Below, piece by piece: positions 3,041 through 59,164 of a stretch of DNA of 64,000 bases; positions within the stretch are counted from its first letter, which is position 1, and each line of letters begins with the position of its first letter. Origin of the DNA: Chloroflexia bacterium (lineage in GTDB: Bacteria; Chloroflexota; Chloroflexia; DTKN01). The stretch spans positions 19,276 through 83,275 of the forward strand of contig DAOTVY010000015.1 of NCBI GenBank assembly GCA_034436115.1, written 5' to 3'. The notes below the pieces were generated by a model. It searched no databases and was not told where the DNA came from. It was given only the letters and a program-made list of their open reading frames with translations. A program made the position numbers and the translations under genes.

Positions 3041-3090
3041 GGTTGTTCCCTCCTATGGTTCCCTTCGTGGGCCGAAGCGGAAGTGGCGGG

Positions 3091-3224: not shown

Positions 3225-3250
3225 ATGCTTTACGATGCCTCCGTTCGGCA

Positions 3251-3284: not shown

Positions 3285-3307
3285 GCCCACTGCCTGTCTA
3301 TCCCGGC

Positions 3308-3577
3308 CTACTTGCGCAGGCCCAGCCGTGAGATGACATCCCGGTACCGTTCCAGGTTCCTCCGGCGCAAGTATGCCAAGAGCCGGCGTCGGCGGCCAAC
3401 CAGCTTCAAGAGCCCACGACGTGAATGGTGATCGTGGACATTTGCCTTCAAATGCTCTGTCAACTGGTTGATCCGTTCCGTCAACAGCGCAACCTGCACC
3501 TCAGGGGAACCGGTATCCGCACTATGAGTCTGAAACTGCTGAATGATCTGAGTTTTCTCCTCACGCTGCAAAGACAC
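3308..3577 (-). CDS. rpsO: 30S ribosomal protein S15
   Basis: 89 aa; [39 protein letters not shown]-terminal LGLRK; GTG start with GGAGG RBS. Confidence 0.99.
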
Positions 3578-31993: not shown

Positions 31994-32911
31994 TCAGATA
32001 CGCTTGTAGGCCTCGAGGAATCCTCTGCGGTTCATCTCGGCGATCTGGCGCCAGATCGCGGCTGGCTCCACGCCATCGGGGGGAAGATTGGCCCGAAACA
32101 CCGCCTCTGCGGCAAGCTCAGGACCTATGGAACGCGCCAAGCTGTCCCATTCCCGCAACGTCGCCTCCAGCCGTTCGAGCACGCTTTCGGGCTCCCACGA
32201 AACGCCGTAATGCGTGAAGCAGATGCCGCGTGGCCGGCGAGCCCGCAGGAATTCCAGGGACCAGAGCATCGCCGCTGGATCGAAGGCCGGAGGGACGGTG
32301 ACCGGACGCAGGAGGGAGCGATCCGGCAGGCGTACCCCGGCCGCATCTCCGGAGAACAGGAGGCCGGCGTGGGGAGCCTCATAGGCGACATGGTCTCGGG
32401 AATGGCCGGGCGTCGGGATCGCTTTCAGCCGTACGCCGCCTCCCAGGTCGAGCTCGATCTCCTCCGCTGCGAGCATCCGCTCGGGCGAGAGCGGCTCAAC
32501 GGTGCCGTACAGGGGAAAGAGTGTTCCCACCGCTTCGGAAACGCCCGCAAGCAACCGGGAAGGGTCCACCAGGTGACGATGGGAGCGGGAGTGGATCACC
32601 ACCTTGGCCCCGGGGAGGATCCGGGCCAGATGGCCGGCTGCGCCGGCGTGGTCCAGATGGACGTGCGTGCAGACGATGTAGCGCACGGCTTCGCGCGGGA
32701 TCCCCAGGCGGTCGAGGCCTTCCAGGATCCGGGGCACTGCGTGCGAGGTCCCCACCTCCACCAGCGCTACCGCATCCGCACCCTGCACGATATAGCAGGC
32801 GCCGTAACGCGGCAGACCCAAGAGGTGCAAATCCAATCCCTGAACGCCATCGGCAACCGGAAAGATCGATGCGGATTCATCCGGCTGCGAAGTCGCGCGA
32901 TCCGGTATCAT
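31994..32911 (-). CDS. MBL-fold metallo-hydrolase
   Basis: [33 protein letters not shown]; start overlaps the pcm stop. Confidence 0.9.
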
Positions 32912-43423: not shown

Positions 43424-46303
43424 GTGAAAGCAGCCGGGGTGGTCGTACTCCTCGTCCTGCTGGGGGCGCTCGCGTTAGCCTGGGCAGCCGGTGATCTCGC
43501 GCCTCGTGCTCCAGCGGACACCCCTTGCGCCCCCCTGGAGCTTCCTACACCCCTTCCCAGCGACGAAGCCGCACTCCGGGCGGCGATGGAAGGGGCCCTC
43601 CGTGCTTGGGCAGCAGCCCATCCCCACAGCAAGCCCCTCCGCCTCGGCCTCGTCTGGGCAGAGGCGGACTGGGCCGCCGGGGAAGTGCACGTCGCTTTTC
43701 CCGACACGTATAGCAGCGAAGGGGCGCTGCTGTTGGCCGAAAGGGCGGCCGAAGGCTGGGAGGTACATTTCCCCGGGGAGCCGTCGTACCTAGCACTCCT
43801 GGAGCGTGGCCCTGCGCGCCACCTACCGCGCCCAGCGTTGGAGGCCCTGCGCGCACAGAGCGGGCCAGCCGTGGGGGACACGAGCGGCCTCTACTACCTC
43901 CCCTACTCCGCCGGTACCTCGGTGCTGGTCACCTGTGTCGATTGCTACCCCGGCCACTTTCCCAGCGTCGACCTGTATAGCTTGGGGGATCGCATCCTGC
44001 GCGCTGCCCGGGACGGGACGGTGGCTGCCTGGCGGGATGTGGGGGATTTCTGCTGCTGCCAGTCGGGCTGCGGCGTTTGCAACAGTTACCTCGTGTTGGA
44101 CCACGGGGATGGCGAATATTCCGCCTACCTCCACTTGGTTTCAGGGAGCATCCCCGAACCGCTCCGCCAGATCGGTGCCTTCGTACCACGCGCGACGGCC
44201 ATCGGCATCGAGGGCGATGTCGGCTATAGCTGCGGCAGCAACCGGCCGGAGGTGGGATGCGGCAGCTTTCTACCGACCCCGGGGCAGGGCTGCGGGCGCC
44301 ACGTGCACTTTGAGGTCCGCGATGCCCCGTACCCCTACGGCCAGCGCCTTCGACCGCGCTTTCAGGACGTTTACGAGCAGACAGAGCCACCCACCTACTA
44401 CCTGGAGGAAGGGCGGATTTATGTCTCGGGAAACCTTCCCCCCAGCCCAACCCCTCTCCCTACCCCAACACCGACCCCTGCGCCCACGCCGACCCCAGGG
44501 GCATGCAACCCGCCTGCCGGCAGCGAGGGGGTCTATCTCTTCAGCGAAGCGCGGTTCTGCGGGTATTTCCACCCGTACCTGGTTTCCGCCCCTGCGATCA
44601 CCACCCCATCTCCCCTGAATGAAGGCGTGTGGTCGATCTCCCTCTTCGGGCCCTATACCGCCACCCTCTTTACCGCGCCGGACTACCAGGGCATTCGGGA
44701 AACGTTCCTCGACGGCGACGAGGACCTTTCGGATAACCCCATCTCGACCGAGACCGCTTCCTTACGCGTGCAGCTGGCGGAATGCCCCGTGATCAGCCCA
44801 GGCCTCGTGCTCTATACCTCTTCCGGGTACAGCGGCGCCTGCCGGCGCTTCGGGGAAAGCGACCCGGACCTGGAAGACGATGGCTTGGCGGGGAGCGTGC
44901 GTTCGCTTCGGCTGGTCGGGCCTTATACCGTTACGCTCTACGCGGGCGCGGGGTATACCGGGCCGGCCGAGACGTTTGCCAGCGACGTCCCAGATCTCCT
45001 GGAGCATCCTCTCGGGCGCAACATCCGCTCCTTTCGCCTGGGCTCCCGCCTATGCAATCCTCAGGCCGAAGGGGTGACCGTATTCGCCTTGCCCAGCTAT
45101 GCCGGGGCCTGCCGGACGTTGGTTACCGCCACTGCGGACCTGTCCTCTACCTTGGGGATGATCCCTCGCTCGATCTGGCTGCAAGGCCCCTTTCACGCAG
45201 TCCAGTACGCGGCGCCCGGCTTTACCGGCACGCAGGAACTCCTGCTGGTGAGCGACCCAGACCTGACCGACAACCCGGCCTTTCCGGCGCGCTCGCTGCA
45301 GGTGGTGGGCGGTTCGTGCCTGCCGTGGCGTGAAGGGGTCACGCTCTTTGCGGGATCGGGGTTTAGCGGCGGCTGTCTCACCTTGCGCACAAGCGATCCA
45401 GACCTCTCCGCGAGCGGGTTGGCGGGACATGTGGGATCGATCCGGATCCGTGGACCATACCGGCTGACGCTTTACGCCCTTCCCGGGTTCGCGGGACCCG
45501 CGGAGCAGATCGACCGCTCGGACCCCGACCTTTCGGACAATCCGGTGGGCGTGCAGGCGGCATCCGTGCAACTGGAGCGGATCCCCTGCAACGCTGGTCA
45601 CGGCGGGGTCACTCTCTGGGCACAGCCCGGTTACGACGGCGTTTGCACCACGCTTCGCAGCGACGACGCCGATCTCGGGAACGATGGAATCGGCCGGGAG
45701 AACGCCTTCTCCTTGCGCATCATCGGTCCCTATAGCGTAACCCTGTATTCCGGCGTGGGCTTTACGGGAACACCGGCGGTTGCGCTGGGTGACCTCCCGG
45801 ACCTGGGCAACACCCCGTTCGCCGGTTCCGTCGCCTCCGCGCGCGTACGGCCACTCGGCGTGACACCGCGCCTATGGAACGACCTGCGCCCGTTTGCGCT
45901 CCCGCTTCAGGTTTCCACCCATCCGGCTTGGTATCTCCAGGAAACTGGATATACCTCCAGCAGCCCCGACGACCCCGTGTTGAGCTGCACGGGCAGCAGC
46001 GGGACCCGCACCCTTTGGTATCGGGTATCGGGGAACCAGAGCGCGGTGTTGCACGCGCAAGGCATGGGCCTTGCCGGTCTGGCCCTAGCCCTGTGGACGG
46101 AAGGGCCGGCCGGCCTGCGGGAACTCGCTTGTGGGTCGGGCGAAACGCCCACCCTGCAAGCCGTGATGCTCGCGGGAAGGCCCGTATGGCTCGAGGCCAG
46201 TATTGCTGGGCCTGGAAGCGGCACCCTCGCGCTCCAGGTGTGGCAGAGCCGCCCGTTCGCGATCTACCTGCCCCTGGTCGTACGCGGCCCATCGAGCCCC
46301 TGA
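43424..46303 (+). CDS. Secreted M23 peptidase with five beta/gamma-crystallin-like domains and a C-terminal YLPLV motif
   Basis: Signal peptide; GHFPSVD, LDHGDG..SAYLHL, HVHFEVR; PT-rich linker; ten repeats of G/Y-V-T-L-Y/F...Y/F-x-G...D-P-D-L...S-x-R; ends IYLPLVVRGPSSP. Confidence 0.85.
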   Translation: MKAAGVVVLLVLLGALALAWAAGDLAPRAPADTPCAPLELPTPLPSDEAALRAAMEGALRAWAAAHPHSKPLRLGLVWAEADWAAGEVHVAFPDTYSSEGALLLAERAAEGWEVHFPGEPSYLALLERGPARHLPRPALEALRAQSGPAVGDTSGLYYLPYSAGTSVLVTCVDCYPGHFPSVDLYSLGDRILRAARDGTVAAWRDVGDFCCCQSGCGVCNSYLVLDHGDGEYSAYLHLVSGSIPEPLRQIGAFVPRATAIGIEGDVGYSCGSNRPEVGCGSFLPTPGQGCGRHVHFEVRDAPYPYGQRLRPRFQDVYEQTEPPTYYLEEGRIYVSGNLPPSPTPLPTPTPTPAPTPTPGACNPPAGSEGVYLFSEARFCGYFHPYLVSAPAITTPSPLNEGVWSISLFGPYTATLFTAPDYQGIRETFLDGDEDLSDNPISTETASLRVQLAECPVISPGLVLYTSSGYSGACRRFGESDPDLEDDGLAGSVRSLRLVGPYTVTLYAGAGYTGPAETFASDVPDLLEHPLGRNIRSFRLGSRLCNPQAEGVTVFALPSYAGACRTLVTATADLSSTLGMIPRSIWLQGPFHAVQYAAPGFTGTQELLLVSDPDLTDNPAFPARSLQVVGGSCLPWREGVTLFAGSGFSGGCLTLRTSDPDLSASGLAGHVGSIRIRGPYRLTLYALPGFAGPAEQIDRSDPDLSDNPVGVQAASVQLERIPCNAGHGGVTLWAQPGYDGVCTTLRSDDADLGNDGIGRENAFSLRIIGPYSVTLYSGVGFTGTPAVALGDLPDLGNTPFAGSVASARVRPLGVTPRLWNDLRPFALPLQVSTHPAWYLQETGYTSSSPDDPVLSCTGSSGTRTLWYRVSGNQSAVLHAQGMGLAGLALALWTEGPAGLRELACGSGETPTLQAVMLAGRPVWLEASIAGPGSGTLALQVWQSRPFAIYLPLVVRGPSSP

Positions 46304-46625: not shown

Positions 46626-46657
46626 AAGGGCGGGCCTTTATGGCTCAGCCCTTTTTT
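46626..46657 (+). terminator. Terminator after tRNA-Asp, overlapping the citE stop
   Basis: AAGGGCGGGCC/GGCTCAGCCCTT hairpin followed by a T tract. Confidence 0.6.
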
Positions 46658-47522
46658 CTTCCTCCAGTTGCTCGGCCAGCGCCAGGAGCCGCCGCGCGCG
46701 CTCGACGATCGGCCGATCGATCATCTTGCCGTCGAGCGCGATTGCCCCGCGTCCCTCGCGCTCGGCCTCCTCAAACGCCGCCAACACGCGACGCGCCTCC
46801 GCGACCTCCGCTTCGCTTGGGGAAAGCAGGCGGTTCACCACCGGGACCTGTCGAGGATGGATCACCTGCTTGGCCCGATACCCCAGCTGCCGCCCGACGG
46901 TCGTGTTGTGCACCAGGCCTGCCTCGTCGTCGATCCGCGGATAGACCATGTCGATCGGCTGCACCCCAGCGGCGCGGGCCGCAAGGACCACCAGTTGCCG
47001 TGCCACCAGCAACTCCGTGGCTTCCTCGGTACGCATCATCCCGGCATCGAGCGAGAGATCCTCCCCGCCGAAGATCAGCCCGACCACCCGCGGATCCGCT
47101 GAGGCGATGGCGTAAGCATTCAGTACGCCCAGCGCGGTCTCGATCGTCGCCAGGATCCCCAGCGGCTCGGCGATCCCGCGTTCCTTCTCTGCCTCGGCCA
47201 GCCACGCGATCACCGTCCGCAACCCCTCGGCATCCTGCACCTTGGGAAGGCAAAGCCCGGCCAAGCCCGGCTGCACGACGGCCGCGATGTCCTCCTGGGC
47301 AAGTCCGCTGCCGTGGGCGTTCACGCGGACAAAAACGGTCCGCGCACCCTCGAGGATCTGTGGCAGCATCTCGCGCACCAGGCTGCGCGCGGCCGCCTTT
47401 TCGGGAAGGGGGACCGAGTCCTCCAGGTCAAGGATTAGCGCATCCGCACCGAGGCTGGGTGCCTTGGCGAGCATGTTAGGCCGGTTTCCCGGGACATACA
47501 GGAGCGTTCGCAGCAGGCGCAT
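46638..47522 (-). CDS. citE: CitE-family (citryl-/malyl-/citramalyl-CoA) lyase
   Basis: RTLLYVPGNR, DALILDLEDSV, FVRVN, LPKV, TIETALG, FGGED, IHPRQV, GKMIDRP; ATG 47522. Confidence 0.92.
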   Translation of the reverse strand: MRLLRTLLYVPGNRPNMLAKAPSLGADALILDLEDSVPLPEKAAARSLVREMLPQILEGARTVFVRVNAHGSGLAQEDIAAVVQPGLAGLCLPKVQDAEGLRTVIAWLAEAEKERGIAEPLGILATIETALGVLNAYAIASADPRVVGLIFGGEDLSLDAGMMRTEEATELLVARQLVVLAARAAGVQPIDMVYPRIDDEAGLVHNTTVGRQLGYRAKQVIHPRQVPVVNRLLSPSEAEVAEARRVLAAFEEAEREGRGAIALDGKMIDRPIVERARRLLALAEQLEEEKRAEP

Positions 47523-47526
47523 GGGG

Positions 47527-47745
47527 CTACTCCTCGTAGAGCTTGTGCAGGCGCAGCGCGCCCGATGGGCACTGCTCCAGGCACAAACCACACAGCGTGC
47601 ACTCGTCCTCGTTCGCCGGATCGGTCAGGAGTTCGTTTCCCTCCAGACGGAAAACGTCCACCGGGCAAACGCGCACGCAAGTTCCACAAGCGTCTGGCCG
47701 GGGGCAGCGCGCGTGGTCCACTTCCAGGCGGATGAACAGGCCCAC
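47527..47745 (-). CDS. 2x[4Fe-4S] ferredoxin
   Basis: GTG 47745: CPRPDACGTCVRVCP and CTLCGLCLEQCP; 72 aa. Confidence 0.9.
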   Translation of the reverse strand: MGLFIRLEVDHARCPRPDACGTCVRVCPVDVFRLEGNELLTDPANEDECTLCGLCLEQCPSGALRLHKLYEE

Positions 47746-47746
47746 T

Positions 47747-48661
47747 TCAGACCTCCTTGGCTGCCCGATCGAGGGCCTCGCGTACGAGCGCGGGCACCTC
47801 CGAGAGGCGCTGAGCCACGAGCACCCCGGCCGCGCGCAGAGCACGCTCCTTGCTCTCCACCCGGCCACGGTCCCCTTCCACGAGCACCGCGGCGTGCCCG
47901 AAGCGTTGTCCGGGCATCCGGTCCACAAATCGGCCAGCCAGGAAGGCCACGACCGGCAACCGAGGACGGTGGGTAGCCACATACTCGGCCAGCGCTTCTT
48001 CCTGCACACCGCCCGGTTCTCCGAACACAACCACGGCTCTTGTGTCGGGGTCGCCCTCCAAGAGGGGCATCAGGTCGACGAAGGTGGTCCCGACGAGTGG
48101 GTCTCCTCCGATGCTCACGCAGATGCTCTGGCCAAGGCCCGACTGCGTGAGGAGGCTCGCCAGTTCGGTGGTCATCCCGCCGCTTCGGGAAAGCACTGCC
48201 ACGGGGCCCGGGGTATAAGCGCGTCGTACATCTTGCGCCGGGCCCCCGACCATGCCGATCTTGACCTTGCCCGGAAGGAGGATTCCCAAGCTGTTGGGGC
48301 CGATGATCCGGGCACCTCGGTGCCGCGCCCAGGCGATGACCTCGGCAACATCTCGCCGGGGAATGCGCTCCGTGACGATGACCAGCAGCCTCAGCCCGTG
48401 TTCCAGCGCCTCCAGCGCCGCTTCCCGAACGGCCGCCGGCGGGACGCTGATTACGGATGCCTCAGCCGGGTGCTCCCGAAGCGCCTGCGCCAGGCTATCG
48501 TACACCGGTACGCCGTAGACCGTGGTACCGCCCTTACCCGGGGTTACCCCGGCAACCACCTGGGACCCATAGTCCAGCATGTGCCGGGTAAAGGTCACGG
48601 CTTCGCGCCCGGTGATCCCTTGGACGACGATACGGGTGGATGGATCGGCCAGAACGGTCAT
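47747..48661 (-). CDS. ADP-forming acid--CoA ligase alpha subunit (SucD/CcsB family)
   Basis: IVVQGITGRE, VAGVTPGKGG, IIGPNSLG, LSRSGGMTTE, SIGGDP, phospho-His FGHAA; ATG 48661 overlaps the beta-subunit stop. Confidence 0.9.
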   Translation of the reverse strand: MTVLADPSTRIVVQGITGREAVTFTRHMLDYGSQVVAGVTPGKGGTTVYGVPVYDSLAQALREHPAEASVISVPPAAVREAALEALEHGLRLLVIVTERIPRRDVAEVIAWARHRGARIIGPNSLGILLPGKVKIGMVGGPAQDVRRAYTPGPVAVLSRSGGMTTELASLLTQSGLGQSICVSIGGDPLVGTTFVDLMPLLEGDPDTRAVVVFGEPGGVQEEALAEYVATHRPRLPVVAFLAGRFVDRMPGQRFGHAAVLVEGDRGRVESKERALRAAGVLVAQRLSEVPALVREALDRAAKEV

Positions 48662-49860
48662 GCCGAACGACTCCTTTCCACCGCCAGGCGTGCCGCCTCG
48701 TCGATGGAAACGCTGCGGTCGCAGAAAGCGATCCCATAGCGGCGCAGGATCTTGGTGCCCTCGTCTTCCCACGCGCCCGGGATGCGAAAGACGGCGATCG
48801 TTTCGCTCGGATCGAGGCCCAGATCCACGATTCCGGCGATGACGCCGCGTGCCACCAAGTCAACCCGCGTGTTGCTGACCACGTTCATGATGACGGCCAG
48901 GCGACGCACGCCAGGTTTGGAGAGGATGTGGCGCGTCAGCGCACGGATCTTGCGCACGCTCGGGTTGCCTCCGATCTCGCAGTAGTTCGCCGGCCGGCCC
49001 CCATGGGCCAGGATCGCGTCGAACACTGTCAGGCTCGCACCGCCTCCTCCGATGAGCAAGCCCAGGTTGCCATCGAACTCGACCACCCGCCCGGCCACAC
49101 CCCGGTGGTCCATCGCATCGATCTCCGCCGCCGCCTGCTCGAAGGGGGTCGGAGGGCGGACAGCCGTGGGCCGCGGGACAATGCCATAGACCTTGCTGAG
49201 CTCCGGATGGCGCCCGAGCGCTTCATCCTCCAGCTCGATGTGGGCGTCGAGCGCAAGGAGCTTCCCCTCGCCCATCCGTCGCAGCGGGTTGACTTCTGCT
49301 ACGGTGGCGTCGAAGCGATAGAACAGCTCGTAGAGCCGGCGAACTGCGTCCCCGAAAGCGAGCAGGTCCGGGCCCTGCAGCGACAGGGCGGCTGCGACCT
49401 CCCGGCCCTTGTAGCCGCCGAACGGCCAAGCCATGTCGACCGGGATACGCACCAGGCCCGTGGGTGCCTCCGCGGCTGCCTGCTCGACGTCCACGCCACC
49501 CTCCAGACTGGCCAGGATGACGGGCGACCGGAGGTACGAGTCGTAGGTCACCGCGAGGAACCACTCCGGCCCGTCCGGCACCGCGGCCTCGACCAGCAGC
49601 TCCTCCACGCGATAACCCAGGAGCTCCGCGCCGAGGAGCTCCGCCGCGACCTGCCCCGCCTCCGTAGCCGTGTGGGCGGAGCGCACACCGCCGGCTTTCA
49701 TGCGCCCACCGCGAGGCACCTGGATTTTGAGCACCACCGGCAAACCCAGGCGCTCCGACGCTTCCTGGGCTGCCTCGGGTGTGCGCACACGCACGCCTTC
49801 AGGGACAGGGATCCCTTGCTCCTTCAACAGCACTTTCGCTTCCCATTCACACAACCGCAT
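48658..49860 (-). CDS. ADP-forming acid--CoA ligase beta subunit (SucC/CcsA family, citryl-CoA-synthetase-like)
   Basis: MRLCEWEAKVLL, KIQVPRGGRMKAGGV, EVNPL, ALDA; substrate loop IGGGGASL, ANYCEIGGNP, ILSKPGV, NTRVD; ATG 49860. Confidence 0.88.
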   Translation of the reverse strand: MRLCEWEAKVLLKEQGIPVPEGVRVRTPEAAQEASERLGLPVVLKIQVPRGGRMKAGGVRSAHTATEAGQVAAELLGAELLGYRVEELLVEAAVPDGPEWFLAVTYDSYLRSPVILASLEGGVDVEQAAAEAPTGLVRIPVDMAWPFGGYKGREVAAALSLQGPDLLAFGDAVRRLYELFYRFDATVAEVNPLRRMGEGKLLALDAHIELEDEALGRHPELSKVYGIVPRPTAVRPPTPFEQAAAEIDAMDHRGVAGRVVEFDGNLGLLIGGGGASLTVFDAILAHGGRPANYCEIGGNPSVRKIRALTRHILSKPGVRRLAVIMNVVSNTRVDLVARGVIAGIVDLGLDPSETIAVFRIPGAWEDEGTKILRRYGIAFCDRSVSIDEAARLAVERSRSA

Positions 49861-49862
49861 CT

Positions 49863-50579
49863 TCACGCTCCGAGGCTTCCAGACTTGCCCTGGACAGCCG
49901 GACGATCCCCCAGCAGCTCGCGCCCCCGCGCCACAAGGCGGGTCAGCGGGATCTGCTTGGGGCAGCTGGCCTCCCACCGCTGGGCAGCCTCTGGGGAAAG
50001 GAGGCCTGCCTGCTCCAGGACCCACAGGCGCACCGGACCGAGGAGATCCCTGGGATCCAGAGCAAAGCGGACGCCCTGGGCCAGCGCCGCCGGATTGGGC
50101 GCCGTGCTGCCACCGGCACCGGCCTGGCATGCCCCGCACAGGATGCACAACGCCCCATCCATGGCCGCTTCCACCGTCGTTTGCTCCATCGTTCCGCCAT
50201 AGTCGGGACGGCGCAGAAGCCAGGGGAGAAAAGCGCGCAGCGATTCGAAAAACGGGTCGATGTCCACCACCAGGTCTCGCAGGACAGGAAAGCCCGGAAG
50301 AGGGCCGATGGAAAGGGAGCCCGAAGGATCGAGGACTTCCGGCACCCGGGTCATACAGGCGAGGCGGGGATGGCCGTTGATGGCGACGGCGCAGGAACCG
50401 CAGATGCCGCTGCGACAGGATCGACGAAAGGCCAGGGTGGCGTCGTGCAGGTCCCGGACCTCGAGCAAGAGATCGAGCACGGTCGAGGTCGGGGAGATCG
50501 TCAACCGGAAGCATTGCCAGTACGGCTCGCGGTCCCGGGTGGGGTCAAAGCGTTGTACCAGGAGGTCGAGCGGGGTCAT
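49863..50579 (-). CDS. sdhB: Succinate dehydrogenase/fumarate reductase iron-sulfur subunit, atypical
   Basis: FRRSCRSGICGSCA...LAC ([2Fe-2S]), VLRDLVVD, CILCGAC, SCPKQIP; [3Fe-4S] cysteines absent; ATG 50579. Confidence 0.88.
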   Translation of the reverse strand: MTPLDLLVQRFDPTRDREPYWQCFRLTISPTSTVLDLLLEVRDLHDATLAFRRSCRSGICGSCAVAINGHPRLACMTRVPEVLDPSGSLSIGPLPGFPVLRDLVVDIDPFFESLRAFLPWLLRRPDYGGTMEQTTVEAAMDGALCILCGACQAGAGGSTAPNPAALAQGVRFALDPRDLLGPVRLWVLEQAGLLSPEAAQRWEASCPKQIPLTRLVARGRELLGDRPAVQGKSGSLGA

Positions 50580-50580
50580 C

Positions 50581-52260
50581 TCAGTACTTCCTCCCTGCCG
50601 GCAGGAAACGGGTGATCGACACCGGTCGTTTTTCCAGCACGGGGCCAGCGGGCGAACGACGCGCGATGGTGTGGACCAGCCAGTGCTCGTCGGCGCGCTC
50701 CGGCCAGTCGGTGCGACAGTGGGCCCCGCGGCTCTCGCAACGGTAGAGCGCGCTCGCGGCAATGACTCGGGCAATCTCCAGCAGATGCCCGCACTCGAGG
50801 TACTCTACCACGGCATAGTTGAAACGGGGAGGCCCTGGATCGAGGCGGATTCCCTGGAAGGTTTGCTGGAGGCGTTCGATCTCCTGGCAGGCGGATTCCA
50901 ATCCAGAGGCATCCCGGAAAATCCCCACCTGGTCGGTCATCAGCTGGTTCAGCGCCTTGCGCACGGCGGCGACTGGCTCCCCACGGGCGCCGGAGCAGAT
51001 GCGCCGCAATTCCGACTCCCAGCGGTCGACCGCCCCCTGGATGCTCTCCGCACTCCCCCAAGGCCGTTCGCGGGCAATTTCGGCCGCCCGGCCCCCTGCA
51101 CGCTTGCCAAAGACCCAGGCATCGAGCAGCGAGTTTCCTCCGAGCCGGTTGGCGCCATGGACGCTGACATTGGCGCACTCCCCGGCGGCAAGCAGGCCCG
51201 GGATCTCCGTCTCTCCCCAGGTGTTGCAACGGATCCCGCCCATACTATAGTGCGCGGCCGGCTCGACCGGCAGGGGATGGTGCGCGATGTCAATGCCGGC
51301 GTAAGTGAGCGCCAGCTGCCGTACCTGAGGAAGACGGGCATCGATCTGATCCGCACCCAGATGCGTGAGGTCGAGGGCGACGTAGCCTTCCCCCAACCCA
51401 CGCCCTTCCAGGATCTCGCGGGCGATCGCCCGCGAGACAACATCCCGGGGGGCGAGTTCCATCGCCTCAGGCGCATAGCGCGCCATGAAGCGCTCCCCAT
51501 TGCGGTTCCGAAGGTAGCCTCCCTCTCCCCGGGCCGCCTCGGAGATCAGGATGTTCTTACCGTATAGGCTTGTCGGATGGAACTGCACGAACTCCATGTC
51601 CGCCAGGGGCGCCCCGGCGCGGTAGGCGATGGCCACCCCATCGCCGGTGCAGGCATGGGCGTTGGTCGTCTTGGCATAGACCCGACCATAACCGCCTGTC
51701 GCGAGCACAACTGCTTTGGCGCGGAACCCGTCCAAACGGCCGTTCGCCAGATCCAGGACGACCACACCTTGACAGCCCCGGTCGTCCACCACGAGATCGA
51801 GCAGATGTTGCTCGGGGTAAACGCGTACGCCCCGGCAAAGCAGCTGCTGGTAGAGGCTATGAAGCGCCAGGTGCCCGGTGTAGTCGGCCGCAAAGCAGGT
51901 ACGCGGGAAGCCGGCACCACCGAGGGAGCGCTGGGCGATCCGGCCATCCGGCGTGCGGGAGAAGAGCACGCCCATCTCCTCCAGCTCGGCGATCGCCGCA
52001 GGCCCTTCCTGGCAGAGGATCTCAATCGCTTCCTGATCTCCCAGGTAATCGCTTCCTTTCACCGTGTCCAGGATATGGCGCTCGATGCTGTCGTCCGCCC
52101 CCAACGCGGCGTTGATCCCGCCCTGGGCGGCGCCGCTGTGGGAACGGGTGGGATAGAGCTTGGAGACGACGCCGACGTCCGCGCCGGCACGCAGTGCCTC
52201 CAGTGCTGCCCGCAGGCCGGCCAACCCGGCACCGATGATCAGCACCTCGTGGTGATGCAT
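50581..52260 (-). CDS. sdhA: Succinate dehydrogenase/fumarate reductase flavoprotein subunit
   Basis: [22 protein letters not shown] (covalent-FAD His), [46 protein letters not shown]. Confidence 0.93.
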
Positions 52261-52385
52261 ATGCCCTCCTGACGCGCGTTGGAAGCCGGTGACCCCCTTG
52301 CACGCACGCGCCCGAGGAGCTCAAGCAGTGGAGGGCGGCCAGGACCCCGGCCACCCGGGAGCCTCAAAGCCGCCCTCCACAGCGA

Positions 52386-52424
52386 CCCCGCAACCCTGCC
52401 CCGCGTGGGCGGATGCTTGCGGGG
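52386..52424. repeat. GC-rich inverted repeat after the lactonase gene
   Basis: CCCCGCAA (52386-52393) / TTGCGGGG (52417-52424); no U tract on the minus strand. Confidence 0.75.
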
Positions 52425-52427
52425 ATC

Positions 52428-53213
52428 CTACTCGTAGTACTCCGGCGCGTGCTTCAGCTTCGGCCAGGAATCGGGGTCGTGGCTGGTAATCACCTTCACC
52501 CCGTAGACCCGGCGCAGGTTCCGGATCCGCTTGACCGACTTGACCACATCCGGCGGGCTGTAGACCAACCCCGGCAGGACATCCTCGTTCAGGATCTCCT
52601 CGGTGTAGATCAGGTCGCCGGTCAGGAGCATCGGGCCGCTCTTCTCGAGGTTCACCAGGAGCGACTGGTGGCCCGGAGTATGGCCCGGGGTAAAGAGGAT
52701 CTTGATCTTCCCGTCGCCGAAGACGTCGTACTCGTCCTCCTGGAAGCCCTCGAGCAGGTACCAGTTCAGGTAAGGCTTGTCAAAGTCGGCGCGGATGTAA
52801 GCCCCCCTCTGGTAAAAGTCCGGCACGTAGGCGTACTGCAGCTCGGCCCGCTGCACAAAGTAGATGGCGTTCGGGAACGCACCGCAGCCGCCGGCGTGGT
52901 CCAAATGCAGATGGGAGAAGATGACGTGGGTGATGTCCTCCGGCTTGACCCCGATCTTGGCGAGCTGGTTAACCACATACTCGTCTTCCCGCATCACGGG
53001 GTCGTAGGCCGCGACTACCGCCGCGCCCCAGTGCTTGATCTTGTCGCGGGCAACTTCCAGCGCATTGCCCGTGTCGAAGAGCACCTTGCCCTTTTCGTGC
53101 TCGATGAGATAGAAGGGCACCGGGACGTCGAACGGCACGCCGACTCCGCGGCCCATGGTGAAGAGGTGTTTCTGGCTCTTGAGGATCCCGCACTGGAACA
53201 TGTAGAGCTTCAT
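52428..53213 (-). CDS. Lactonase of the AiiA/AttM(BlcC) metallo-beta-lactamase family
   Basis: VLFDTG, SHLHLDHAGG (HxHxDH), TPGHTPGHQS, LLTGDLIY (AiiA-type Asp and Tyr), VITSHDP; ATG 53213 behind AGGAG. Confidence 0.88.
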   Translation of the reverse strand: MKLYMFQCGILKSQKHLFTMGRGVGVPFDVPVPFYLIEHEKGKVLFDTGNALEVARDKIKHWGAAVVAAYDPVMREDEYVVNQLAKIGVKPEDITHVIFSHLHLDHAGGCGAFPNAIYFVQRAELQYAYVPDFYQRGAYIRADFDKPYLNWYLLEGFQEDEYDVFGDGKIKILFTPGHTPGHQSLLVNLEKSGPMLLTGDLIYTEEILNEDVLPGLVYSPPDVVKSVKRIRNLRRVYGVKVITSHDPDSWPKLKHAPEYYE

Positions 53214-53306
53214 CGCACTCCTCCTTCTCGCATCCGCCGGGTCTTCCCCGGGGCAACCGGGAAACTGCCACCGGGTTGCCACCCCATTGTCAGCCTCCAG
53301 ACCTCC

Positions 53307-53798
53307 TTACGCCTTCTTGGGCGCGAGCCACGCGGGGATCATGACCGACACGTAGCCGAGCAGGATACCGACAAAGAGCCCGATCAGCGTGTAGAGGATG
53401 TTCTGGAAGGAGAAGAAATTGTCGGTCTTGAACTGGCCGAAGGTGAACGCGAAGAAGGCGGCGAAAGCACAGAAGGCAGCACTGGCCAGTTCCAGAGGCT
53501 TCCAGTTCATGAGGAGCACGAGCACCAGGGCGCAGATCCCCACGAGGATCGAGATGCCTACGAAGCCAAGTTCGCCTCCGAGCTTGAGCCCGTAGAGCGC
53601 CACGTGCCCGAGAAGCACACCGAGGAGCATGGGGAAGCCGGCCTTGAGGATCGCCGCGGCGTTGCTGCCCGCGACGAAGAAGAAGGCCCACCCGATAAAG
53701 CCCGCCCACGTGGGGAGCTTCAGTTTGATGGACACGTAAGTCCACAGGGCGGCCAGGATACCGATGCTGATGGACAGCGCCACGTACTTGAGGCGCAT
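53307..53798 (-). CDS. DUF1097-like membrane protein
   Basis: 163 aa, five to six TM helices; ALSISIGILAALW, WAGFIGWAFFF, LIGLFVGILLGYVS. Confidence 0.7.
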   Translation of the reverse strand: MRLKYVALSISIGILAALWTYVSIKLKLPTWAGFIGWAFFFVAGSNAAAILKAGFPMLLGVLLGHVALYGLKLGGELGFVGISILVGICALVLVLLMNWKPLELASAAFCAFAAFFAFTFGQFKTDNFFSFQNILYTLIGLFVGILLGYVSVMIPAWLAPKKA

Positions 53799-53822
53799 CT
53801 CTCCTCCTCCTTGCGCTGAGAA

Positions 53823-55106
53823 CTACCAGAGCACCATCGACTCGCGGAAGATCCGGGCCAGGTCCTCCTTCGTCACCGGGCGCGGGCAGCCAACCAGCAA
53901 ACGCTGCTGTTTCCAGCCGCCTTCTACCAGGCCAGGGATATCGTCCTCCGTATATCCCAACGCCGCAAGGCCGTTCGGGCATCCGATGTCCCGCATCAGC
54001 TGGATCAGCGCCTCGGGTAGCTTCATCGCGGCCTCCATCGGCGAAAGCCCGGAGATGTTGGCTCCAAGCAGCTCGGCGATGCGGGCGTGCTTCTCCGGGT
54101 TCGTCGGAGCCGTGAAGCGGAACGCCGCGGGCGCGGTCAGCACGACGGACAGCCCGTGCGGAACCAGGGCTTCCTCTACGGGGTACTCGCTCGGCTTCCA
54201 CTCACGGATCATGCCCGCGATCGGGTAGCCCAGGGCGTGCGGGATGTGAACCCCTGCGTTCCCGAAGCCGATGCCCGCAAAGGTCGCTGCCATAGCCATG
54301 TAGCTGCGCGCCTCGAGGTCATTGCCATTGTAGCAGGCCCGGCGCAGGTACTTCCCGACCCACTCGATCGCCTTCTCGCTCCAAAGGTCCGCGATCGGGT
54401 TCGACCCCACATAGGCCGGCCGCAAGCTTGGATCCTCTGGTTTCGGCCGCGTGTTGTAGGGTTTGCTCGTGAACGACTCGGCAGCGTGGGTCAGCACATC
54501 CAGCCCGGTAAAGGCCGTGACCTGAGGCGATTGCGTGATCGCGTTCAGCGGGTCGACGATGGCCATTGTCGGGCGGATGTTCACGTGCGAGATGCCCGTT
54601 TTCACCTTCAGCTGGAGGAGGTCCAACACGATCACCGGTGTCGTTTCGCTGCCGGTGCCGGTGGTTGTGGGAAGCGCAAAGTGGGGCTTTAGCGGACCGG
54701 GAACGAGCTTTCCCTGGCCGATCGGTTTGTTGATATAATCGAAAAGATCGGCGGGGTAGGTGTTGAAGAGGTTCATCGCCTTGGCGGTATCGATCGTGCT
54801 CCCGCCGCCCAGGGAGACGAAGGCGTCGTAGACCTCGTCCCCGACCGCCTGGATCGCCGCGCGGAAGGAGACGTCTGTGGGCTCGATGTGCACCTCATCG
54901 TAGATGCGCAGCTGGATCCCCTCGCGCTCGATGATCTGCTTCACGCGGTCGATCAGCCCATACTGCCAGAGGTTCTTATCGGCCACGAGCAGCACTTTCT
55001 TGGCGCCGAGGATCCGCAGTTCGTAGCCCAGTTCCTCGGTAGCCCCGATCCCAAACTTGAGCTTGCCCATGGAGAGAGGGATGACGGTTTCTAGCTCGAC
55101 GGACAT
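53823..55106 (-). CDS. Hydroxyacid-oxoacid transhydrogenase (ADHFE1/HOT-type Fe-alcohol dehydrogenase)
   Basis: KFGIGATEELGY, EPTDVSF, GGGSTIDTAKA, PTTTGTGSETT, GLDVLTHAAES, RPAYVGSNPIAD, GNAGVHIPHALGYPIAG, VPHGLSV, QQRLL. Confidence 0.88.
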   Translation of the reverse strand: MSVELETVIPLSMGKLKFGIGATEELGYELRILGAKKVLLVADKNLWQYGLIDRVKQIIEREGIQLRIYDEVHIEPTDVSFRAAIQAVGDEVYDAFVSLGGGSTIDTAKAMNLFNTYPADLFDYINKPIGQGKLVPGPLKPHFALPTTTGTGSETTPVIVLDLLQLKVKTGISHVNIRPTMAIVDPLNAITQSPQVTAFTGLDVLTHAAESFTSKPYNTRPKPEDPSLRPAYVGSNPIADLWSEKAIEWVGKYLRRACYNGNDLEARSYMAMAATFAGIGFGNAGVHIPHALGYPIAGMIREWKPSEYPVEEALVPHGLSVVLTAPAAFRFTAPTNPEKHARIAELLGANISGLSPMEAAMKLPEALIQLMRDIGCPNGLAALGYTEDDIPGLVEGGWKQQRLLVGCPRPVTKEDLARIFRESMVLW

Positions 55107-55231
55107 CGCTGCACCTCCTGACTGGAGCTTATATCCGCGTGCGATGCCCCAACGGCACCGCCCCGAGCTTGCCGGGCTCCTGAACCATCGGGCACCTGCC
55201 TCCTTCCGGCTCCTCAGCCCTGAAACTCAGG

Positions 55232-55292
55232 GCACCTATCGATCACCGCAGACACTCGTGCCACGCCGATTGCCGCGACGCACCTATCGATC
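55232..55292. repeat. 13-bp direct repeat upstream of the transhydrogenase gene
   Basis: GCACCTATCGATC at 55232-55244 and 55280-55292 (48-bp period). Confidence 0.9.
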
Positions 55293-55365
55293 CATTCTCC
55301 CTTGGGGCTCCCTGGAGGCATCCACCAGGGTCTGCCCGGCGGCCATACCTGCAAAGGGATATAGG

Positions 55366-57111
55366 TTAGGACGATGGCCTCTCCCAGCCACGCCGGTCAT
55401 AGTACTCGCGGACCATTTTCTCCAGTTCCTCGGGGGTCAAGCGCTCGCCGCTGGGCTGGATCGGTTCACGCAAGAGGCGCTCCGGGAGCGTGTCGTCGGC
55501 CGGAACCATGCCCTCACGCAGGTTGTAGGATCGGATCAGGTTGGCGATGCGCGCCGAAAGGGCCTGCAACCCAGCCTTGTCGAGCTCCAACCCCGTCAAG
55601 CCCCGGATGATGCGGGGCAGGTCGTCCCAGCCGATCATATCCCGGTAAAAGCGGCAGAAGATCAGCGTATCAAAGACCGTGTGGCGGTCTTCAAAGTCGA
55701 GCACCAAGTCCGCCTTGCCCTCAGCCGTCGTCCGATCGACCCAACCGGCCAGCTCGGCCTTGTACACGGTAGCCCGCAGATGACAGGCACCGCGATCCGA
55801 GATCGCATAGGCCAGGCCCATGCCTTTGAGCCCACGGGGGTCATACCCAGCCGGCTCGAGCCCCTTGACGTGGATCGCCAGTTCCTCCAGCCCCAGCTGC
55901 CGCGCGGCCGAACGCACGCCTCCGGCAAAGATTTCCCCTATGCCCTCGCGCGCGGCGACCTTCCGCAGCAACTCGGCGATCCCGTCCACATCTCCATAAT
56001 CCAGCCCGAGGTCGAGGACACCCCGACGACAAGCCTCGATTGCCAGGCCCGCGACGTTGCCCCCGGTGATCGTGTCCAGCCCCAGGCGGTCGCACAAGTC
56101 GTTCAGGTAGAGGATTTCGGCGAGGTCGTCCACCCCGCACAGGCCGCCGAACGCGTAGATGGTCTCGTATTCCGGGCCCTCGACCGTCAGCCCGGCGTGC
56201 CGACCGTCCGGAACCGTAACCAGCTTGCCACAGGCAAAGAAGCAGCGGTAGCAGGCCTTGGGACGAGGCTGGAAACGCTCGACCAGTGCATCGCCGCTGA
56301 TCTGCGCCCAGTGGGGAACCGTGCCCGCAGACCAGTAGTAGCTGGGGAAAGCACCGGCGCGGTTCGTGAGCGCCACCACCATCGGTGTCCCGAACTTCCG
56401 GTAGTTGGCCGCGCCGGCGTCCGTCTTGCCCCGTTCCCGCAGTTCGCGGTCGTAGGCGGCGATGTCCTCAGGGTCGAAAAGCTGGCACTCTGCCCGGCCG
56501 TGGAAGACGATGCCCTTGACCTTCTTCGAGCCGAGCACGGCCCCCATACCGACGCGCCCGGCCTGCCGGCCGCGGTCGTTTCCCACCAGGGCAAAGCGCA
56601 CCAGGCGCTCGCCGGCGGGCCCGATGACCATCGCCTTCGCGCCGGGGATCCCCACATCCTTCTCCAGTGCCTCCTCCGCCGCATAGGCGTCCAACCCCCA
56701 GAATGGCCGCGCATCGTGAAAGGTTACCCCAGCGTCCGAGATCTCCAGATAGATGGGGTCGCTCGATGCCCCCCGGATGACGATCGCGTCGTAACCCGTC
56801 GCCTTGATCTGGGGAGCAATGTGGCCGCCAGAAGCCGACTCGCCAAAGATGCCCGTCTGCGGGGATTTGCTGATCAGGATGTAGCGGCTTGCCGGAGCCA
56901 GGACCGTGCCGGTGGCAGGACCGGTGGTGACGATGAGCGGGTTTTCGGGGGAAAGGGGATCCACTCCACGAGGGGCATACTGGGAAAGGAGATACGCACC
57001 GAGGCCCTTCCCACCCAGGTAGTCTCTCAGCACCTCCTCCGCCACGGCCTCCGCCCGAAAGTTCCGTTCCGACACGTCCACGTGCAGGATCCGTCCGTGG
57101 AAGCCCAGCAT
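55366..57111 (-). CDS. Aldehyde:ferredoxin oxidoreductase (tungstopterin AOR family)
   Basis: GGKGLG, KSPQTG, ESASGG, IGPAGE, GMGAVLGSKKVKG, CYRCFFAC, EGPEYET, GLDTI, RGACHL; ATG 57111 behind GGAGG. Confidence 0.93.
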   Translation of the reverse strand: MLGFHGRILHVDVSERNFRAEAVAEEVLRDYLGGKGLGAYLLSQYAPRGVDPLSPENPLIVTTGPATGTVLAPASRYILISKSPQTGIFGESASGGHIAPQIKATGYDAIVIRGASSDPIYLEISDAGVTFHDARPFWGLDAYAAEEALEKDVGIPGAKAMVIGPAGERLVRFALVGNDRGRQAGRVGMGAVLGSKKVKGIVFHGRAECQLFDPEDIAAYDRELRERGKTDAGAANYRKFGTPMVVALTNRAGAFPSYYWSAGTVPHWAQISGDALVERFQPRPKACYRCFFACGKLVTVPDGRHAGLTVEGPEYETIYAFGGLCGVDDLAEILYLNDLCDRLGLDTITGGNVAGLAIEACRRGVLDLGLDYGDVDGIAELLRKVAAREGIGEIFAGGVRSAARQLGLEELAIHVKGLEPAGYDPRGLKGMGLAYAISDRGACHLRATVYKAELAGWVDRTTAEGKADLVLDFEDRHTVFDTLIFCRFYRDMIGWDDLPRIIRGLTGLELDKAGLQALSARIANLIRSYNLREGMVPADDTLPERLLREPIQPSGERLTPEELEKMVREYYDRRGWERPSS

Positions 57112-57166
57112 CGTTGCCTCCTGTTGTTCAGGGCAGCCAGAAACCGGAAGGTGCTTAACGGCTTTA

Positions 57167-57195
57167 AATATAGCACAGGAGGCGGAGAAAAGCAA
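57167..57195 (-). promoter_or_regulatory. Promoter of the AOR cluster
   Basis: TTGCTT-17-TATATT with extended TG. Confidence 0.65.
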
Positions 57196-57381
57196 CCGCC
57201 AGGATGATCGAGCAAGCGCCTGCGTCGGCGTTGCTTTCCGAAAACGTTTGCACTGCGGGATATTTCTCACACTTTTTCGTGCTTTCCGCGGATCTTTCAC
57301 CGGCCCGTGACCCGCTCGTTCCGAAGACAGGATCTCGCCCTGGCCGGCCCGCGCAACCGGTCCGTGCCACAGGCTGTGCCG

Positions 57382-57413
57382 TTGCACGAGCCTTGTCGCA
57401 GTGCTATACTGCG
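57382..57413 (+). promoter_or_regulatory. Promoter of the XPB-like helicase with an inverted repeat over the -10
   Basis: TTGCAC-17-TATACT with extended TG; CGCAGT-N5-ACTGCG at 57397-57413. Confidence 0.7.
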
Positions 57414-57448
57414 TGCGCAATCGGACTCTGCCTGAAGTCCGGGGGGAC

Positions 57449-59164
57449 GTGTTGAGCGCGCCGCTCATCCTACAGCCGGACCGGACCATCCTACTGGATA
57501 TGGGCCACCCGCTCGCACACGAATTGCGGGATCGACTCGCCTCTTTTGCGGATCTGGAGCAGAGCCTTCAGCACCTCTGCCTCTATCGGCTCACCCGGCT
57601 TTCCCTATGGAATGCGGCTGCTGCCGGCCTGCAGCCCGAGCCCCTCGTGGAAATGCTCGCAGCGAACAGTCGCTACGGCATCCCACCGGAGGTCGAGGCC
57701 TGGATCCGCGAGACCATGGCACGCTACGGCCGGCTGTTGCTTTTGCGGGAAGGGGAAATGCTGCTGCTGCAAGCAGACGACGCCGCATTGATCGCCCGAC
57801 TCGCGCGGAGTCGCGCCATCCAGGAGTTCCTGTGCGGGCAACGGGACCCGAAAAGCCTGCTCGTGCATCCTGAGGCCCGGGGCCTCCTCAAGCAACGCCT
57901 GCGGCAGCTGGGGTATCCGCCCGCGGACCACGCGGGTTATATGCCGGGTGCGCCGCTGCCGATCTCGCTACGCGCCTGGACCCGAAGCGGTCGGCGCCTG
58001 GTGCTTCGGCCCTACCAGGAAGCCGCTGCGGCGGCCTTTATGCGGGAAGGGATGCACGGCGGAAGCGGGGTCATCGTGCTTCCGTGCGGCGCCGGGAAGA
58101 CGATCGTCGGCCTGGCCGTGATGGCCCGGTTGCGCACGCATACGCTGATCCTGTGCCCTCACGCGACCGCCGTGCGCCAATGGCGCGAGGAGCTCCTGGA
58201 CAAGACCACCCTCGAAGCGGAGGACATTGCCGAGTACACCGGAGAGGCCAAGAGAATGGCCCCCGTCACCTTGGCCACATACCAGATCCTGACCCATCGT
58301 CCCGCCCCGTGTGGCCAGCGGCAGGCGCCGTTCTTTCCCCACCTAGCCCTCTTCGAGCAGCGGAACTGGGGCCTGATCATCTACGATGAGGTGCACCTGC
58401 TCCCCGCACCCGTGTTCCGGATCACGGCGCACCTGCAGAGCCGGCGACGCCTGGGGTTGACCGCCACGCTGGTACGCGAGGATGGGCGCCAGGGGGACGT
58501 CTTTTCCCTCGTCGGGCCCAAAGTGTACGAAGCGCCGTGGAAACAGCTGGAGGCCCAGGGGTGGCTGGCCCAGGTCGAGTGCTTGGAGGTGCGGGTCACC
58601 GTCCCGGATGCGCTACGCCTCGACTATGCTTGCGCACCCAGGAACCACGTCCGCTCCCGCTTGGCTGCAGAGAACCAGCGCAAAGAGGCCGTGGTCCATC
58701 GACTGGTCCGGCGGCATCAGGGGGAGCAAACGTTGATCATCGGTCGATACCTGACCCAATTGCGGGCCCTCGCAGCTTCCCTGGGCGCGCCCCTGATCAC
58801 CGGGCACACGCCCCTGGAGGAGCGGGAACGGCTTTACGCCGCCTTTCGCCGGGGCGAGCAACCGGTGCTGATCGTCTCTAACGTGGCAAACTACGCACTT
58901 GATCTCCCGGAAGCTAGCGTGGCGATCCAGGTATCGGGCACTTACGGTTCCCGGCAGGAAGAAGCCCAGCGGTTGGGCCGCATCCTGCGTCCCAAGCCCG
59001 ATGGGCGGCCCGCACGCTTCTATACGTTGGTGTCGCAGGGTACCAACGACCAGGAGTACGCCTTGCGCCGTCAGCGCTTCTTGGTCGAGCAGGGCTACCG
59101 CTATACGATCCTGAGCGAGGACGCGCTGGAGGAGGGAGACGCAGATCCCCTGCCAGCGGGCTAA
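57449..59164 (+). CDS. XPB/Ssl2/Rad25-like superfamily 2 helicase
   Basis: N-terminal PLILQPDRTILL...YRLTRLSLWNAAAAG; LRPYQ, VLPCGAGKT, DEVH, LGLTATLVREDG, LDLPEA, SRQEEAQRLGRILRPK. Start placed at GTG 57449 because the longer ORF start overlaps the promoter. Confidence 0.93.
   Translation: MLSAPLILQPDRTILLDMGHPLAHELRDRLASFADLEQSLQHLCLYRLTRLSLWNAAAAGLQPEPLVEMLAANSRYGIPPEVEAWIRETMARYGRLLLLREGEMLLLQADDAALIARLARSRAIQEFLCGQRDPKSLLVHPEARGLLKQRLRQLGYPPADHAGYMPGAPLPISLRAWTRSGRRLVLRPYQEAAAAAFMREGMHGGSGVIVLPCGAGKTIVGLAVMARLRTHTLILCPHATAVRQWREELLDKTTLEAEDIAEYTGEAKRMAPVTLATYQILTHRPAPCGQRQAPFFPHLALFEQRNWGLIIYDEVHLLPAPVFRITAHLQSRRRLGLTATLVREDGRQGDVFSLVGPKVYEAPWKQLEAQGWLAQVECLEVRVTVPDALRLDYACAPRNHVRSRLAAENQRKEAVVHRLVRRHQGEQTLIIGRYLTQLRALAASLGAPLITGHTPLEERERLYAAFRRGEQPVLIVSNVANYALDLPEASVAIQVSGTYGSRQEEAQRLGRILRPKPDGRPARFYTLVSQGTNDQEYALRRQRFLVEQGYRYTILSEDALEEGDADPLPAG

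Follow-up and report, generated by a model that had tools for sequence, protein, structure and literature searches.

Gene content and protein families

The window analysed here is a stretch of 64,000 nucleotides from a Chloroflexia bacterium (contig DAOTVY010000015.1, positions 19,276 to 83,275 of the forward strand), and the subject of this study is a cluster of four open reading frames (ORFs) on its minus strand, at window positions 52428-57111, which ends in a gene for a lactonase of the metallo-beta-lactamase (MBL) fold. In the direction of transcription the cluster encodes an aldehyde:ferredoxin oxidoreductase (AOR; 55366-57111, 581 aa), an iron-containing alcohol dehydrogenase (Fe-ADH) of the ADHFE1-like hydroxyacid-oxoacid transhydrogenase (HOT) subfamily (53823-55106, 427 aa), a membrane protein of the DUF1097 family (PF06496, the YcdZ family; 53307-53798, 163 aa) and an AttM/BlcC-like lactonase (52428-53213, 261 aa). 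The AOR and Fe-ADH genes are separated by 259 bp, the Fe-ADH and DUF1097 genes by 24 bp, and the DUF1097 and lactonase genes by 93 bp. An earlier note on this DNA had described four co-oriented genes of these families; their ORFs coincide exactly with the limits it gave, and metagenome gene callers report the identical four products on five independent contigs. The cluster is chromosomal, its G+C content (62-66%) is near that of the remaining window, and the relatives of its proteins are labelled as Chloroflexia, Anaerolineae or Chloroflexota metagenome-assembled genomes, the host itself being an uncultured member of Chloroflexota. Profile matches from Pfam and NCBIfam bear out all four family assignments.

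The AOR matches the Pfam domains AFOR_N (241 bits) and AFOR_C (381 bits) and aligns end to end with Pyrococcus furiosus AOR (1aor, E 2e-111) and with 9mqx. Compared with the P. furiosus enzyme it keeps all four ligands of the 4Fe-4S cluster, in a CxxCxxxC motif (CYRCFFAC) and a fourth cysteine (FCRF), together with the catalytic glutamate of EGPEYE (EGPEYET) and the catalytic histidine of RGxCH (RGACH). Judged by these residues, it looks like a functional tungsten/molybdopterin aldehyde oxidoreductase. It shares full-length homology, cluster ligands and active-site residues with the archaeal AOR and formaldehyde ferredoxin oxidoreductase (FOR), but is of a bacterial, Anaerolineae type and 581 aa long. 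The archaeal enzymes are regarded as broad-range, whereas the conserved catabolic cluster around the window AOR suggests a specific physiological aldehyde. P. furiosus FOR has been crystallised with glutarate, and glutaric semialdehyde has been proposed as its substrate (PMC12096430), which provides a precedent for enzymes of the AOR family acting on carboxy-aldehydes.

The Fe-ADH matches the Pfam Fe-ADH and ADH_Fe_C domains and carries a GGGS nucleotide motif and Asp/His metal ligands. It is 31% identical to Agrobacterium BlcB, relative to which residues 216-232 (17 aa) and 299-311 (13 aa) are extra inserts. The hallmark of the HOT subfamily is a pair of inserts, which in the human protein occupy residues 256-274 (19 aa, between helices 5 and 6) and 342-354 (13 aa, between helices 8 and 9) (PMC5125639). 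The two inserts are spaced by 67 residues in the window protein and by 68 in human ADHFE1. Numerous relatives at 70-93% identity carry the name hydroxyacid-oxoacid transhydrogenase in automatic PGAP or IMG annotations, and with both inserts at the published positions the HOT assignment of the earlier note holds. A search of the PDB finds no solved structure within the subfamily; the best matches are methanol and 1,3-propanediol dehydrogenases. The window enzyme thus shares its Fe-ADH subfamily (cd08190) and both loop inserts with mammalian ADHFE1, and differs in being bacterial and in being clustered with a lactonase; its acceptor may be either 2-oxoglutarate or free NAD(P).

The lactonase has the MBL fold (Pfam Lactamase_B, 91 bits) with the zinc motif HLHLDH, of the dinuclear-zinc HxHxDH type. 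It is 48% identical to Agrobacterium tumefaciens AttM/BlcC over its full length and aligns end to end with a solved N-acyl homoserine lactone (AHL) lactonase, 9khq (E 3e-81). AttM is by far its best NCBIfam model, at 334.7 bits against the cutoff of 390 for the AttM equivalog (NF045700), and the next model, AiiA, scores 157.6; the lactonase is therefore best described as a close relative of AttM, with no certified equivalog status. Both the identity and the best model agree with the AttM/BlcC type proposed in the earlier note. A second MBL-fold protein in the window (31994-32911, minus strand, 305 aa, adjoining uvrB, with Lactamase_B and ODP matches) is unrelated to it, with 24% identity over 113 residues.

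The DUF1097 protein matches its Pfam family at 89.2 bits against a cutoff of 24.6, and about six helices are predicted from a low-confidence AlphaFold2 model (16-sequence alignment, pLDDT 58.8). Comparative genomics has predicted the DUF1097/YcdZ family to be transporters (PMC3454398), and in Anaerostipes hadrus a member adjoins the pyrimidine-catabolism genes preTA (PMC11036815). The 16 close relatives found (59-72% identity) seemingly all lie on contigs with HOT and lactonase genes, and each of those traced to its contig is located between the two. The subfamily thus appears restricted to HOT-lactonase clusters. Escherichia coli YcdZ ('NupT') belongs to the same Pfam family of small multi-helix inner-membrane proteins, but the window protein falls into a distinct small subfamily tied to these clusters, and this tie suggests a cargo different from that of YcdZ, such as a lactone or a hydroxy acid.

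Recurrence of the cluster

Species genomes of GTDB were scanned with the Fe-ADH and metagenomes with the lactonase; the window proteins were mapped on the resulting loci by tblastn, and relatives of the DUF1097 protein and the AOR were traced to their contigs. The window arrangement, AOR-HOT-DUF1097-lactonase, recurs in the two closest relatives (L006 and L007). In most relatives an additional acyl-CoA dehydrogenase-like (ACAD) gene of 445-454 aa lies between AOR and HOT. The resulting five-gene order AOR-ACAD-HOT-DUF1097-lactonase is found in L034 (ACAD at 8582-9946), L085/86, L087/88 and L090, and shortened versions are seen at loci where the contig ends upstream: ACAD-HOT-DUF1097-lactonase in L041 and ACAD-HOT-lactonase in L010. 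L008 has AOR-HOT-lactonase, L043/L044 have a decayed C-terminal AOR remnant followed by HOT-DUF1097-lactonase, and five short contigs (L037, L042, L050, L053 and L089) hold partial copies.

The order AOR-(ACAD)-HOT-(DUF1097)-lactonase was thus found in at least eight lineages, in which the flanking genes differ and the cluster stays contiguous. An intact AOR lies directly upstream in nine of the ten lineages with a readable upstream region. Several junctions are short: AOR and ACAD are separated by 25 bp in L087/L088, and ACAD and HOT by 40-58 bp in L034, L085 and L090. The HOTs linked to a lactonase group together as a single Chloroflexota clade in a neighbour-joining tree, and within that clade the synteny survey called for in the earlier note finds co-occurrence that recurs. 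Outside it, Desulfopila sp. IMCC35008 has a HOT (62% identity) and lactonase (61%) pair behind a sigma-54 activator, and pairs of a BlcB-type Fe-ADH with AttM occur in Agrobacterium, Thioclava and L056. AttM-type lactonases have thus been linked to Fe-ADHs at least three independent times, in the Chloroflexota HOT clade, in Desulfopila and in the BlcB-type Proteobacteria pairs. It is in these separate linkages that consecutive action of the two enzymes finds its strongest evidence.

Away from these loci, neither enzyme has a fixed companion. Lactonase orthologues without a HOT are found beside a short-chain dehydrogenase/reductase, a zinc-dependent alcohol dehydrogenase, an aldehyde dehydrogenase (ALDH) or a GFO/IDH/MocA oxidoreductase, a suggestive set of neighbours that lacks consistency. 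No consistent partner and no 2-hydroxyglutarate dehydrogenase were found among the neighbours of bacterial HOT orthologues, one of which lies near another MBL protein. In the complete Anaerolineae genome CP070818 (L079, 4760-7272) the gene for an Amidohydro_2 protein is followed, after 72 bp, by that for a HOT orthologue. The Amidohydro_2 family includes some lactonases, such as LigI, and this may be another pairing of a hydrolase with a HOT. Some survey loci carry further genes of interest. L089 holds a second HOT paralogue (75% identity), and in the lineage of L089 (2596-6421) and L090 (6253-8073) the cluster is followed by genes for DUF1847 and for an MmgE/PrpD-family protein. The five-gene cluster of L087 has further genes upstream (1-3536), which encode a second AOR of 628 aa, a fragment of AFOR_N and an Oxidored_FMN/Pyr_redox_2 protein of 641 aa resembling enoate or 2,4-dienoyl-CoA reductase.

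Transcription signals and neighbouring genes

About 55 nt before the start of AOR is a sigma-70-like promoter sequence (57167-57195, minus strand), with a -35 element TTGCTT, a 17-nt spacer and an extended -10 element TGcTATATT. The element is conserved in L006 and L007 as TTGACC or TTGACT followed by TGnTATAAT. A generic sigma-70 and terminator scan reported no promoter, missing this one because the window -35 element matches at three of six positions, and gave three terminator-like sites, all intragenic and no more numerous than in shuffled sequences. The 259-bp gap between AOR and HOT (55107-55365, minus strand), where most relatives have the ACAD gene, contains no consensus promoter or terminator; it is poorly conserved, and its fold is unexceptional (z = -1.9). 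No ACAD remnant above noise was detected in it by tblastn or blastn at permissive settings. An Rfam scan of 52000-57700 at E <= 1 returned only a meaningless lncRNA match, and hence no riboswitch in the gap. Of the single promoter that the earlier note had placed before the four genes, the conserved element upstream of AOR and the lack of a consensus promoter in the AOR/HOT gap have stood; that one promoter serves all four genes is plausible but unproven.

A 13-bp sequence, GATCGATAGGTGC, is directly and perfectly repeated in the gap, at 55280-55292 and 55232-55244 (minus strand), with its two copies 48 bp apart. The repeat is not conserved in L006 and L007 and is specific to the window; it might be bound by a regulator or be the scar of a deletion. 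Motifs of the sigma-54 -24/-12 type upstream of AOR and in the gap were rejected on account of wrong spacing, and a 19-codon ORF with a ribosome-binding site in the gap was dropped, as it is not conserved in L006 or L007.

The lactonase stop codon is followed by a GC-rich hairpin (52326-52383, minus strand), a putative terminator, attenuator or mRNA-stability element. The 170-nt gap following the lactonase folds at -102.8 kcal/mol (z = -3.5), and the hairpin stem is conserved in L006 and L007, where both of its arms carry changes. The hairpin has no T-run, and termination at this site is accordingly a matter of inference. In L006 and L007 it lies about 25 nt ahead of the start of the next gene, so that transcription may read through into the downstream genes.

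Those genes form a block co-oriented with the cluster (46638-52260, all minus strand). It encodes a succinate dehydrogenase/fumarate reductase (Sdh/Frd) flavoprotein (50581-52260) and Fe-S subunit (49863-50579), a pair lacking membrane-anchor genes; a divergent SucC-like protein (48658-49860; 222 bits against a SucC cutoff of 370) that contains the citrate-binding domain of ATP-citrate lyase; a SucD-like protein (47747-48661); a 72-aa ferredoxin with two [4Fe-4S] clusters (47527-47745); and a CitE-like lyase (46638-47522; 258 bits, below the citE cutoff of 443). The block is possibly co-transcribed with the cluster. It could represent a citryl-CoA synthetase, a CitE-type citryl-CoA lyase and a fumarate reductase, in the manner of a reverse TCA cycle; alternatively, it could be a set of malate or itaconate CoA ligase and lyase. 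In this arrangement it adjoins the cluster only in the window, L006 and L007. In L043 (122-3346) the HOT-DUF1097-lactonase core likewise has SucCD-like and CitE-like genes beside it, upstream rather than downstream, and in L085 (1-245) a SucC-like gene is found at a distance of about 4 kb from the cluster. Their recurrence may reflect a functional link or shared ancestry alone. At the far end of the long co-oriented gene run, a convergent plus-strand gene (43424-46303) encodes a protein of 959 aa whose only matches, to beta/gamma-crystallin and Inhibitor_I36, are faint. On the other side, upstream of the cluster, lie genes for an XPB-like helicase and an MFS transporter.

A putative lactone pathway and its alternatives

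The gene order invites comparison with the blcABC operon. On the At plasmid of A. tumefaciens, blcR is followed by genes for an NAD-dependent succinate-semialdehyde dehydrogenase (BlcA), an iron-containing alcohol dehydrogenase (BlcB) and AttM. The blc operon degrades gamma-butyrolactone (GBL) through 4-hydroxybutyrate (gamma-hydroxybutyrate, GHB) and succinic semialdehyde (SSA), and BlcC also cleaves many AHLs (PMC5924552). The window cluster shows the same functional order of an aldehyde-oxidising enzyme, an Fe-ADH and an AttM-family lactonase, and is collinear with blcA-blcB-blcC, in support of the analogy drawn in the earlier note. It differs in having an unrelated tungsten/molybdopterin AOR in place of the ALDH-family, NAD-dependent BlcA, a HOT-type Fe-ADH with two extra inserts in place of BlcB, and an added DUF1097 gene, to which most relatives also add the ACAD-like gene; an IclR-type regulator is absent. 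No BlcA homologue was found in the window by tblastn, and BlcB matches only the HOT gene, at 31% identity. With no BlcA homologue and an Fe-ADH of another subfamily, the cluster is an analogue of blcABC and no member of it. Searches of the literature on DUF1097, on AOR with lactonase and 4-hydroxybutyrate, and on bacterial ADHFE1 turned up no description of such a cluster, in keeping with the earlier note, which knew of no described pathway with this gene set.

On balance, we consider it somewhat probable that the genes serve lactone catabolism in a Chloroflexota lineage of anaerobic type and follow the logic of blcABC. What we observe is which genes are present, the families to which they belong, their collinearity with blcABC and the conservation of the cluster; from these we infer the catalytic steps, the substrate, the direction of flux and what the DUF1097 protein does, as follows. 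The DUF1097 protein, a candidate permease, would probably import the substrate. The AttM/BlcC-like zinc lactonase would open a small lactone to an omega- or gamma-hydroxy acid, the HOT-type Fe-ADH would oxidise the terminal hydroxyl to a (semi)aldehyde with a 2-oxoacid or NAD(P) as acceptor, and the AOR, as a non-homologous stand-in for BlcA, would convert the aldehyde to a dicarboxylate and pass the electrons to ferredoxin; a 72-aa ferredoxin is encoded six genes downstream. The simplest series would run from GBL through 4-hydroxybutyrate and SSA to succinate, since characterised members of the lactonase and dehydrogenase families point to C4 compounds: mammalian HOT converts GHB to SSA (PMC5125639), and AttM/BlcC hydrolyses GBL (PMC5924552). 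By this analogy GBL is our simplest guess at the substrate, and C5-C6 or branched lactones are further candidates in view of the ACAD gene of relatives.

Several observations weigh against this reading. The lactonase scores below the AttM equivalog cutoff, and no regulator gene, of the IclR-type BlcR or any other kind, adjoins the cluster in the window. Apparently no bacterial HOT-subfamily enzyme has been characterised, nor any enzyme of this cluster. About 22 HOT orthologues (70-73% identity) have unrelated and inconsistent neighbours, so that a dedication to lactones does not extend to the HOT subfamily at large. The remaining difficulties concern the AOR and the ACAD gene. The closest homologues of the AOR (74-79% identity) are solitary or in unrelated contexts in L081-L084, and in a neighbour-joining tree cluster-linked and stand-alone AORs interleave, with no distinct cluster-linked clade; the window AOR, which falls into one ortholog group with solitary AORs of other Anaerolineae, is accordingly an ordinary Anaerolineae AOR and no specialised paralogue. 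In L043 (3464-3882) and L044 (16-410) the AOR directly upstream of the intact HOT-DUF1097-lactonase genes is reduced to a decayed C-terminus (residues ~458-578), recognised as two overlapping tblastn pieces with no ORF spanning them, a natural loss of AOR with the core retained. The Desulfopila pair has no adjoining aldehyde-oxidising gene, no AOR is visible beside the core in L010 and L050 either, and the 259 bp between AOR and HOT in the window are matched by 270-285 bp after AOR in L034 and L085. All this would fit a module confined to HOT-(DUF1097)-lactonase, in which a general-purpose AOR on its own transcript adjoins by descent and the semialdehyde is handled elsewhere, a possible state of affairs that we nevertheless take to be unlikely: the AOR is kept directly upstream in nine of the ten readable lineages despite their differing flanks, it is only 25 bp from ACAD in L087/L088, and the promoter-like sequence is conserved upstream of AOR and not in the AOR/HOT gap.

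The position of the ACAD gene between AOR and HOT in L034, L041, L010, L085-L088 and L090 raises a different difficulty, as it would imply a CoA-thioester step that is unneeded for the conversion of GBL to succinate. The substrate might then be another lactone, such as delta-valerolactone or a substituted or branched C5-C6 lactone, processed further at the level of CoA esters: a SucCD-like ligase would activate the dicarboxylate product and the ACAD of most relatives would desaturate it, after the pattern of glutaryl-CoA dehydrogenase. SucCD-like or CitE-like genes near the core in three arrangements, and the binding of glutarate by FOR, are consistent with this, as is the best NCBIfam match of the ACAD, a non-decarboxylating glutaryl-CoA dehydrogenase. 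That match is weak, however (111 against 470 bits), and the ACAD falls far below the cutoff of every curated family; the gene is absent from the window, L006, L007 and L008, with no detectable remnant in the window gap, and the C4 series is what the two named enzyme families suggest first. We hold such a route to be doubtful. Interference with signalling, by quenching of AHLs or of actinomycete-type gamma-butyrolactone hormones with the dehydrogenases metabolising the opened product, is improbable. The closest solved structures and NCBIfam models of the lactonase are indeed AHL lactonases, and BlcC cleaves AHLs besides GBL, but AHL cleavage is seen as a side activity of the GBL pathway in Agrobacterium as well (PMC5924552); there is no LuxR- or LuxI-type gene nearby, and the conserved tight linkage of the lactonase gene to those for the membrane protein and for the enzymes of hydroxy-acid and aldehyde oxidation suggests carbon catabolism. 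AOR and alcohol dehydrogenase pairs are also known to work reductively in acid-reducing anaerobes, and the genes might convert carboxylate to aldehyde and alcohol with reduced ferredoxin, as in acetogens or Pyrococcus, for instance succinate to 4-hydroxybutyrate. The fumarate-reductase-like SdhAB pair directly downstream would suit such a route, but a hydrolytic lactonase conserved together with the dehydrogenase would make no sense at its end, because lactone hydrolysis is favoured at neutral pH, and we regard reductive operation as highly improbable.

The oxidative pathway proposed in the earlier note thus draws support from the protein families, the collinearity with blcABC and the recurrence of the cluster, while the GBL scheme leaves the ACAD unexplained and the AOR is unspecialised. 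Its claim that no free NAD is required is an extrapolation from mammalian HOT. To our knowledge, transhydrogenase chemistry, with 2-oxoglutarate as acceptor and tightly bound NAD, is known solely for the mammalian enzymes; no 2-hydroxyglutarate dehydrogenase, which would serve as the recycling enzyme, is found among the annotated genes of the window. A complete route by which anaerobic Chloroflexota oxidise lactones or omega-hydroxy acids without free pyridine nucleotide, in which the bacterial HOT is a true transhydrogenase, the tungsten AOR delivers reduced ferredoxin, the DUF1097 protein is a hitherto unrecognised lactone or hydroxy-acid permease, and the ACAD, SucCD-like and CitE-like proteins carry the dicarboxylate into central metabolism, is a speculative proposal that we think rather unlikely to hold as a whole. 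If true, it would give a first physiological role to the bacterial HOT subfamily, to this DUF1097 subfamily and to an Anaerolineae AOR.

The succession from lactone through hydroxy acid and semialdehyde to diacid is already known from blcABC, and the degradation pathways of cyclopentanol and cyclohexanol follow the same pattern. The novelty lies in the enzymes employed, a tungsten AOR and a HOT-type alcohol dehydrogenase, in the membrane protein that accompanies them, in the host phylum and in the ferredoxin output that the set implies. We regard the proposed pathway as a well-supported genomic hypothesis that is no surprise in principle. If it is real, two of the three steps known from the GBL pathway would have undergone non-orthologous displacement, and anaerobes would have a ferredoxin-yielding, energy-conserving use of lactones or 4-hydroxy acids. 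The cluster also suggests a source of thermostable, oxygen-independent enzymes interconverting lactones, hydroxy acids and diacids. AttM-like lactonases can degrade quorum-sensing signals, and such clusters could therefore shape signalling in anaerobic communities. The cluster also provides functional hypotheses for three groups of proteins that are poorly understood, the bacterial HOT-type Fe-ADHs, a subfamily of DUF1097 and the abundant AORs of uncultured Anaerolineae.

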